Assembly (NCBI GenBank): GCA_913065025.1 | Contig: CAJYAP010000004.1 | Span: 1 to 53,262, forward strand | Direction of reading: 5' to 3' | Source of the DNA: an uncultured Gammaproteobacteria bacterium | GTDB lineage: Bacteria; Pseudomonadota; Gammaproteobacteria; Poriferisulfidales; GCA-002705445 | Length of the DNA: 53,262 nt | In this document: piece after piece, positions 41,435 through 43,570 of the stretch | How positions within the stretch are numbered: position 1 is the stretch's first letter | How the letters are laid out: each line of letters begins with the position of its first letter | Translations under genes and position numbers: made by a program | The notes under the pieces: model-generated | The model's input: only the letters and a program-made list of their open reading frames with translations | What the model was told of the DNA's origin: nothing | Databases searched by the model: none

Positions 41435-41890
41435 CTATGAAATCATTCCGTCCATTAGTCTATACTTTCTAAAACTATCTCTTATAAGAGAAGGTACTCT
41501 TCTTCTATTTTTTTTGTTAAAAACCTGGCTTTTAAGACTTTCTCTTCTATTTATAAGTTTACAGATTTTTATTTTTATTTTAGTAATTTTTTTATTTTCA
41601 TATGAAATACATCTATCTAAATATTTTAGATCAAATTGATACTCTTCAATTCTTGAATTTATAATTTGAACTTCTTTTTTTCTATTTTTTTCTTTTGCTG
41701 TTCTAAAAGTGGAGTTATATATTTCATGCAATTTTTTAACTTTACTTTCGAGTATTAAATTATTATCTTGAGAATTATTTTTATTTATTTTATTTTGAAT
41801 ATTATTAATTTTTATGCGTATCTTTTTTTGGAGTTTTTCTGCTTTAAATCGGTTATAACTAGCCTTATTATCTTTGCATCTATTTGACAT
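41435..41890 (-). CDS. Hypothetical Lys/Arg/Asn-rich, probably coiled-coil protein
   Basis: Strong AGGAGGTG SD before ATG; 151 open codons. Confidence 0.6.
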   Translation of the reverse strand: MSNRCKDNKASYNRFKAEKLQKKIRIKINNIQNKINKNNSQDNNLILESKVKKLHEIYNSTFRTAKEKNRKKEVQIINSRIEEYQFDLKYLDRCISYENKKITKIKIKICKLINRRESLKSQVFNKKNRRRVPSLIRDSFRKYRLMDGMIS

Positions 41891-42449: not shown

Positions 42450-42650
42450 GTGAGCACATCTTCATTAATTTTTTGTATTATTTTTATTCCTCTTTTTGCT
42501 TTGTTTTTATTTATTAATGTTAAACATAATTTTATAAACAAAAATAAGAAGTTTGAAATTATTACCAGCCCTGTCTATTATATTCTTTTACTTATATCGA
42601 CTATCTGGTTTTCTTATGTGCTTTTAATTACACTAGATCCAAATTTTTAG
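42450..42650 (+). CDS. Small two-TM hypothetical membrane protein
   Basis: Two hydrophobic segments; 25 nt after the DsrC-like gene. Confidence 0.5.
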   Translation: MSTSSLIFCIIFIPLFALFLFINVKHNFINKNKKFEIITSPVYYILLLISTIWFSYVLLITLDPNF

Positions 42651-42756
42651 TATTTTTTTTCGCTTTTTTTTCGCTTTTTTTTCTAGATTTACATTTTTTA
42701 TTACATAGCTTTTTTTCACACTTTTTCGAACAATATTTAATTTTACTTGATCGCAT
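42628..42756 (-). CDS. Putative 42-aa Cys/Lys-rich peptide (MRSSKIKYCSKKCEKKLCNKKCKSRKKSEKKAKKNTKNLDLV), not in ORF track
   Basis: ATG 3 nt after the upstream stop; C-x3-C-x4-C-x3-C; explains the T8CGC repeats. Confidence 0.4.
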   Translation of the reverse strand: MRSSKIKYCSKKCEKKLCNKKCKSRKKSEKKAKKNTKNLDLV

Positions 42757-42759
42757 ACT

Positions 42760-43044
42760 TTATTTTTCTTTATCTTCATCTCTAACAAAAGCTTTTGTTT
42801 TTCCATCACTTAAGCTTTGCAAAAATGCAATAGCTTCTTCCCCTGTCATATATTTATATTCATCATAGTCTTTTGGTGTTTTCACAACTTGTATCTCTAG
42901 TTCTTCCATACCGTCTCTTATATATTGTTGATCAGCAGACTTCAAATCCTTAATAATTTCGTCTAATTCGGATATTAAAATATAACCAGTTTCTTTGCCT
43001 TTTTTAACAATATTTTTTATGTCATTAGTTATGTTTTCATTCAT
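42760..43044 (-). CDS. Stand-alone sigma70 region 1.1-like protein
   Basis: IKNIVKKGKETGYILISELDEII..IRDGMEELEIQVV resembles RpoD 1.1 (LKLLVTRGKEQGYLTYAEVNDHL..IIQMINDMGIQV). Confidence 0.7.
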   Translation of the reverse strand: MNENITNDIKNIVKKGKETGYILISELDEIIKDLKSADQQYIRDGMEELEIQVVKTPKDYDEYKYMTGEEAIAFLQSLSDGKTKAFVRDEDKEK

Positions 43045-43054
43045 ATTTTTACTA

Positions 43055-43570
43055 TTAGCTCCATATTTTTATCCAGTTATCTAAACTTACATGAAGTTTT
43101 TTATTTCTTTCTTGAATTTCTTTTCGCATTGCACATCTCATTTCTCCTGCTTTAAATAATTTTTTTTCAATCTCAGACTCAATATTTAACTTCGGGACCT
43201 CCATGGGTTTTCCATCTTCACTTATAGAAACCATAGTAAAATAACTAGAAATAGCATGGTACTCTTCCTTTTCTTTAATTTTTTCTCCTTCAACACGAAC
43301 TCCGACTTCCATTGAAGTCTTTCCAACATAATTTATATTACATTTGAACGTTATAAGGTCACCTACTTCTATAGGATTTTTAAAAACAACTTGATCTAAT
43401 GACTTTGTTACTACATACGTTTTACAGTACCTAGATGCACATGTGAAAGCTGCTTCATCCAATAATTTTAATATTGTTCCACCATGAACTTTTCCTGAAA
43501 AATTAGACATATCAGGTGTCATTAACCTCGTCATAAATAATGATTTATCTTGCTGCGTTTTATCATTCAT
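43055..43570 (-). CDS. Acyl-CoA thioesterase (hotdog, YciA-like)
   Basis: NFSGKVHGG.ILK.LDE, GKTSMEVGV, SYFTMV. Confidence 0.9.
   Translation of the reverse strand: MNDKTQQDKSLFMTRLMTPDMSNFSGKVHGGTILKLLDEAAFTCASRYCKTYVVTKSLDQVVFKNPIEVGDLITFKCNINYVGKTSMEVGVRVEGEKIKEKEEYHAISSYFTMVSISEDGKPMEVPKLNIESEIEKKLFKAGEMRCAMRKEIQERNKKLHVSLDNWIKIWS

Follow-up and report, generated by a model that had tools for sequence, protein, structure and literature searches.

The window analyzed here is a 53,262-nucleotide stretch of DNA from an uncultured gammaproteobacterium whose genome (0.98 Mb, 30% GC) is 83% complete. On its minus strand, at positions 42760-43044, both the list of open reading frames and the sequence itself contain a frame of 94 codons with an ATG start and a TAA stop. 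The features of the locus are as follows.

42760..43044, minus strand: complete gene for a very probable free-standing paralog of sigma region 1.1 (ATG 43042-43044, TAA 42760-42762, 94 aa)
42871..43044, minus strand: region 1.1-like fold, residues 1-58 (Pfam PF03979, hhalign, AF2, Foldseek)
42787..42870, minus strand: family-specific and most constrained motif, residues 59-86 (conserved columns, dN/dS 0.04)
42763..42786, minus strand: variable charged tail VRDEDKEK, residues 87-94 (poor conservation, pLDDT below 50)
43055..43570, minus strand: upstream gene for a hotdog-fold acyl-CoA thioesterase (Pfam 4HBT, 6e-17)

The 1.1-like gene is the last of a same-strand run that also comprises genes for an S51 peptidase, a PQ-loop protein, a HIT protein, and the thioesterase, and this run converges on tusE. 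Between the stop codon of the thioesterase gene and the start of the 1.1-like gene there are 10 nt, a spacing that makes co-transcription of the two probable. Most loci of the genus preserve the order S51 - (PQ-loop) - HIT - thioesterase - 1.1-like gene - ... - ppc, with the thioesterase next to the 1.1-like gene; the exceptions in the genus are L012 and L014, where the locus has no thioesterase, and L010 and L011, which have another neighborhood. In a second lineage, the gene follows that of an HhH-GPD glycosylase (endonuclease III) and lies near iscR-iscU. None of the neighbors in either lineage is linked to transcription, all being housekeeping (metabolic or repair) genes. Reading a function from the neighborhood was rejected because the thioesterase/HIT/ppc synteny is confined to the genus and endonuclease III and iscU accompany the gene in the second lineage.

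Three further small open reading frames were observed around the gene. A Lys-rich frame of 42 residues with four Cys (MRSSKIKYCSKKCEKKLCNKKCKSRKK...; window 42628-42756, minus strand) starts 3 nt past the stop of the 1.1-like gene. Its core, YCSKKCEKKLCNKKCKSRKK, recurs with 81-88% conservation at the equivalent position of L007/L017 and L008/L021, is interrupted by stops in L009/L018, and is missing from the other loci; the frame is either a genuine mini-protein or a 3' region that is conserved. A single-TM mini-ORF of ~33-42 residues (MKDKKITYLIIIFIILALISFYYMHNFLE...; L007:3856-3957 and equivalent positions in L008-L011) is located directly 5' of the 1.1-like gene in a subclade of the genus, with L010 and L011, whose wider synteny is different, among its members; neither the window genome nor the second lineage has it. 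In L011, it is in the +1 frame relative to the 1.1-like gene, whose GTG start it overlaps, and an in-frame fusion of the two is ruled out. Between tusE and ppc is a Lys/Asn-rich frame of 151 residues without a family match (window 41435-41890, minus strand) that is merely 41-49% conserved in L005, L006, and L013 and is missing from the other loci.

Homology to Sigma Region 1.1 and Predicted Fold

Region 1.1 of the group 1 sigma factors (Pfam PF03979) corresponds to residues 1 to ~91 of Escherichia coli sigma70; its structures include those of the 4lk1-type holoenzymes, Thermotoga maritima 2k6x, and Bacillus subtilis 5mww. The motifs from which the original prediction recognized such a region (IKNIVKKGKETGY, SELDEII, and MEELEIQV) are all present in the 94-aa protein. 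The Pfam Sigma70_r1_1 model, to which that prediction had looked for a match, aligns with residues 7-66 at 20.0-20.5 bits (E 4e-4 to 6.6e-4), so that the window's own member lies just below the gathering score of 22.5 bits; among the aligned family members, 23 of 23 match the model at E<=0.1 (best E 4.8e-7) and the ortholog in G210, at 30.1 bits, above the gathering score. Several family members also carry a precomputed PF03979 match, and positions 21-89 of the NCBIfam RpoD model align with residues 3-69. Scans of Pfam and NCBIfam at E<=1 gave only Sigma70_r1_1/RpoD and chance-level matches; in these scans the Rsd, delta subunit, and DksA-like families had no profile match to the protein, and the HARE-HTH family was not among its Pfam matches at the same threshold.

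In a 63-aa BLASTP alignment with the RpoD of its own genome, 32% of the residues are identical (1-61 against 3-65, E 8e-5), and hhalign of the family against the RpoD N termini of the same order aligned residues 2-62 with 4-66 over 61 columns (94.6%, E 7e-8). In the PDB, the family profile matched E. coli sigma70 and further RpoD chains of solved structure (residues 1-63 on 1-65, E 0.003-0.017) as well as the T. maritima region 1.1 NMR entry. A six-frame search of each carrier genome returned the N terminus of RpoD as the sole other match of the family profile. The features shared with RpoD are the same start at the N terminus, the hydrophobic core, and a KGKExGY turn.

Two AlphaFold2 (AF2) models have pLDDT values of 63.6 and 71.1 overall and of about 80-86 over residues 11-60, with low confidence for residues 62-94. 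The predicted elements are helix H1 (3-19), a strand (21-23), helices H2 (24-31) and H3 (36-48), a second strand (52-54), and a helix at 68-81. In Foldseek searches of the PDB, sigma 1.1 entries were at the top for the first model, 5mww superimposing with an rmsd of 1.5 Å over 51 columns, and ranks 1-5 for the second were 2k6x, 5mww (prob 0.93), a SigA model, and two E. coli sigma70 chains, the latter from RNAP complexes. The structural resemblance originally expected is thus found for the predicted models, which have the helical-bundle fold of sigma 1.1.

The individual statistics are weak: the Pfam score of the window member is below the cutoff, the Foldseek E-values of the sigma 1.1 matches (0.4-1.9) are non-significant, and so is the match to helix H4 (see below) when taken alone. 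We conclude true homology from the agreement of these individually weak lines. As judged from sequence comparison and predicted models, residues 1 to ~60 are a true homolog of region 1.1, and the resemblance that was first noticed in the motifs is borne out by Pfam, by BLASTP against the genome's RpoD, by hhalign, and by the six-frame profile search. That the gene is a free-standing 1.1 paralog under selection we regard as very probable.

RpoD and the Sigma Factor Complement

The genome has, as anticipated, an intact rpoD elsewhere (615 aa, C6:3213-5060, downstream of dnaG) with a 99.8-bit match to region 1.1. Matches to Sigma70_r2 in the genome are limited to rpoD and rpoH, and its sigma70-family genes are two, rpoD and a gene for 285 residues with the RpoH box QRKLFFNLR. 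With full-length RpoD as query, the sole tblastn match in the 53-kb window was the 94-aa frame, through RpoD residues 3-65, and no remnants of regions 1.2-4 were found. The protein ends at residue 94 and has no regions 1.2, 2, 3, or 4; it is not a group 1 sigma factor, and its lack of regions 1.2-4 excludes the promoter binding and the docking on core RNA polymerase (RNAP) that a sigma factor performs. The earlier statements that regions 2-4 are absent and that a frame with its own start and stop is not a broken rpoD both stand.

Full-length RpoD is kept in every carrier checked that has an assembled rpoD region. Region 1.1 of the carrier RpoD is 92-100% identical within the genus and exhibits no notable difference from that of non-carrier sisters. 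A role for the 94-aa protein as a replacement for 6S RNA is ruled out by the presence of 6S RNA in the same genomes; it occurs in carriers and non-carriers alike.

Distribution of the Family

Homologs form 188-534 clusters at 90% identity, nearly all of 91-100 aa, that come from marine metagenomes, MAGs, and SAGs and are labeled 'Gammaproteobacteria bacterium' or 'Thiothrix sp.' Among 1.84 billion proteins, 29 representatives at 50% identity match, many of them fragments. The 1.1-like gene is present in 13 of the 15 GTDB genomes of one genus; the two genomes without it are 77-79% complete and also miss the neighboring thioesterase. The two sister genera of the family lack it, as do the order's 10 other genera, and a thioesterase probe sent against the sister genera in search of a syntenic empty site found no match. 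Since the sister genera do without it, the gene is dispensable in close relatives. In the second order (~1 Mb genomes only), 18 of 37 genomes, belonging to three of six genera, have the gene. Genome size is about 1 Mb in the genus as well. The family is narrow in distribution and cellular in origin. In one genome of the second lineage, G364, there are two family copies (C41:3012-3287 and C3:78312-78581; 145 and 133 bits), which may represent a strain mixture; the assembly has 5% contamination.

A second PF03979 match was found in 8 of 300 evenly sampled Gammaproteobacteria, and these comprise full-length sigma duplicates, two 405-aa frames, one 51-aa frame, and the 94-aa family. In another family of the order, two genomes have a tandem pair of full-length rpoD-like frames (about 590-645 aa) spaced about 1.8 kb apart (G043:C1:82502-84743 and G051:C1:237620-239853). 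The 405-aa frames are borderline matches to Sigma70_r1_1 (G188:C1:2890251-2890427 and G267:C1:1052503-1052670; about 23 bits, model positions 17-75) and may be larger non-sigma proteins with an internal 1.1-like domain. The 51-aa frame (MIAKEIIEKGREQGYLLKSEIMEMLPNEADSPEGLELIFEMIRHMGIEVRD; L070:1501-1656, minus strand), from a GC-rich genome of 2.9 Mb (G134), scores 48.9 bits on Sigma70_r1_1, is unrelated to the 94-aa family, and is without its C-terminal motif; it is an independent free-standing 1.1 fragment or else a remnant.

Charge and Constraint

The net charge of residues 1-58 averages -1.1 among 23 members (range -5 to +2), as compared with -6 to -8 for region 1.1 of the RpoD of that genus; RpoD residues 1-100, which include the linker, carry -18 to -20. 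The charge of a DNA mimic is largely gone from the 1.1-like domain, and the premise of the original prediction that such a protein is an acidic DNA mimic fails, since the folded domain is nearly neutral relative to that of RpoD. The C-terminal third carries a charge of about -4.7, and the whole protein has a charge of about -6 and a pI of about 4.5-4.9.

The segment past residue ~58, previously described as a short acidic helix, is the most constrained part of the protein. Residues 59-86 comprise invariant and near-invariant columns, DYDExKY[ML][TS]GxxAIxFLQxL[ST]DGxxxAF, and are the best-conserved part even among members that are only 44-51% identical overall; this motif alone had no credible match in Pfam or among PDB sequences. 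The pairwise dN/dS among orthologs is about 0.10 (0.14 over codons 2-58, 0.04 over codons 59-88); all of these values are approximate because dS (1.3-1.6) is near saturation. Within the genus, the identity of the protein is 72-88%, on a par with the neighboring enzymes.

Once the RpoD alignment was lengthened as far as the beginning of region 1.2, hhalign spanned 77 columns (residues 2-78 against 4-91, 93.5%) and placed GEEAIAFLQSL on AEEAAQALVTV of RpoD. The C-terminal part alone is non-significant against RpoD (E 0.22), and its best local match is at the same collinear position. Helix 68-81 is the probable counterpart of H4 in sigma 1.1, and the protein is then probably a whole four-helix 1.1 module composed of H1-H3 and an H4-like helix. 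These alignments are suggestive of a protein equivalent to the first ~95 codons of rpoD, with a shorter acidic H3-H4 linker and without most of the negative charge. Constraint is concentrated in H3, the short strand, and the H4-like motif, a pattern that suggests a specific surface for protein-protein contact and not electrostatic mimicry.

Discussion

The 94-aa protein is a functional, lineage-restricted, free-standing paralog of the N-terminal module of RpoD. It resembles sigma region 1.1 in being homologous from residue 1, in the order of its helices, in the KGKExGY turn and hydrophobic core, and in its probable fourth helix. It differs in being a separate gene product without regions 1.2-4, in having an H3-H4 linker of about 13 residues versus about 25, in a net charge of the domain of about -1 versus -6 to -8, and in its own invariant motif, DYDExKY..GxxAIxFLQxLSDG..AF.

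This ancestry makes RNAP or a sigma factor the likeliest partner and suggests that the protein would serve the transcription machinery as a small accessory factor. Such a combined statement, that a selected free-standing 1.1 paralog acts as a small RNAP- or sigma-associated accessory factor, is the reading to which we incline tentatively, as somewhat short of an even chance; RNAP itself as the partner is possible, and is proposed a little more guardedly still. In E. coli sigma70, region 1.1 is a four-helix bundle seated in the RNAP cleft, where its occupancy is attributed to its negative charge, and H4 is at the cleft's mouth, and formation of the open complex requires H4 to unfold (PMC10979975). 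The 1.1-like bundle and its highly conserved H3/H4 surface might similarly dock in the cleft or at its mouth. As the genome has RpoD and RpoH only, the likeliest targets would be the enzyme forms without a resident region 1.1, namely the core enzyme or the RpoH holoenzyme; alternatively, the protein could compete with RpoD's own region 1.1. Either way, DNA loading or sigma exchange would be modulated.

The most specific version of this proposal is a region 1.1 that acts in trans, as a dissociable cleft-gating subunit in ~1 Mb genomes that have RpoD and RpoH only. It would fill the DNA channel of core RNAP or the RpoH holoenzyme through the H3/H4 protein-protein surface and not by charge mimicry, bringing nonspecific DNA binding, sigma exchange, or formation of the open complex under its control. 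We judge this version unlikely, and we count the loss of charge, the lack of a contextual link, the absence of the gene from sister genera, and the reuse of a 1.1-like fold in Menshen NsnA against any RNAP-directed role.

In the strongest alternative, a real but doubtful possibility, the 1.1-derived bundle has been repurposed to scaffold the invariant C-terminal motif, the partner is a protein or small ligand unrelated to RNAP, and the likeness to sigma reflects descent and not function. Constraint is strongest in the family-specific motif and not in what the protein has in common with RpoD, the negative charge that is the hallmark of region 1.1 has gone, and the neighbors are metabolic or repair genes. 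Domains similar to sigma-70 region 1.1 have been described as putative sensor domains in Menshen NsnA (PMC12065111), which is like the 94-aa protein in having a 1.1 fold outside a sigma factor; in NsnA they are N-terminal, fused to a defense protein, and recognized by structure only (PMC12065111), whereas the 94-aa protein is free-standing, in a housekeeping context, and without a PADLOC match. Set against repurposing are the facts that no other partner is suggested by context, fusions, or profiles, that the motif has no match in Pfam, PDB sequences, PADLOC, or PHROGs, and that the collinear alignment with H4 of RpoD suggests a motif within the same module and not a new add-on.

A sigma-directed factor, in which the free 1.1 protein binds free RpoD or RpoH and serves as a mild anti-sigma factor or modulator of sigma exchange, would be an analogy to the role of region 1.1 within sigma, where it has been proposed to stabilize an inactive conformation of the free protein. 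According to a statement in a review (PMC7641759), region 1.1 of free sigma contacts the promoter-recognition regions and inhibits DNA binding, and the genome, with only RpoD and RpoH, has few other regulators of sigma. This possibility appears rather improbable, in that the carrier RpoD keeps its own, highly conserved region 1.1, with no notable difference from non-carriers, and there is no obvious need for another copy in trans.

Very improbable is a phage-related role, whether as a decoy for T7 Gp2-like inhibitors that exploit region 1.1 or as a defense or phage-derived gene. Gp2 uses region 1.1 of sigma70 according to a work cited in PMC10979975 (ref 16), and the decoy idea was an analogy of the original prediction that nothing else favors. 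Relatives of the protein were absent from 50,697 phage records (INPHARED) and from IMG/VR, PADLOC gave no match, PHROGs had none for the window's own protein, and the viral folds of BFVD gave no meaningful match to the predicted model; a phage or defense origin is rejected on these searches, and the gene has a stable chromosomal position amid ordinary housekeeping genes. The reading of the frame as a remnant of a duplicated rpoD or as spurious, for which its coverage of only the N terminus of RpoD could be cited, is refuted, with negligible residual probability, by a dN/dS of about 0.1 at dS above 1, by a length held at 91-100 aa over hundreds of clusters in two orders, and by the absence of rpoD remnants nearby.

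Returning to the proposed accessory factor of the transcription machinery, small modulators of RNAP or its cleft include the delta subunit (RpoE) of Firmicutes, 6S RNA, and the phage DNA mimics T7 Ocr and Gp2. By analogy with these, the 94-aa protein is a candidate small factor on the DNA-binding cleft of RNAP, but it has no relation to the delta subunit, Ocr, or Gp2 in sequence or fold and is much less acidic. The original prediction knew of no characterized protein of this kind, and this agrees with the searchable full-text literature, which describes no free-standing region 1.1 protein and in which the fused domains of Menshen are the only non-sigma occurrence. Some NCBI records are named 'RNA polymerase sigma factor region1.1 domain-containing protein', and the resemblance is therefore already on record in annotation, yet unstudied.

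As a tethered part of sigma, region 1.1 gates the entry of DNA into RNAP and affects the release of sigma, and to our knowledge it has so far been studied only in this form. A free-standing region 1.1 under strong selection would be a natural experiment on its action in trans. It could indicate which surfaces of region 1.1 matter once the charge is gone and by what means transcription is tuned in very small genomes that have two sigma factors. A 1.1 protein that acts in trans on the cleft would, if confirmed, represent a previously unrecognized type of bacterial RNAP accessory subunit. Binding to RNAP would make the protein a new accessory factor; failing that, it would be a sigma module recycled for another job.
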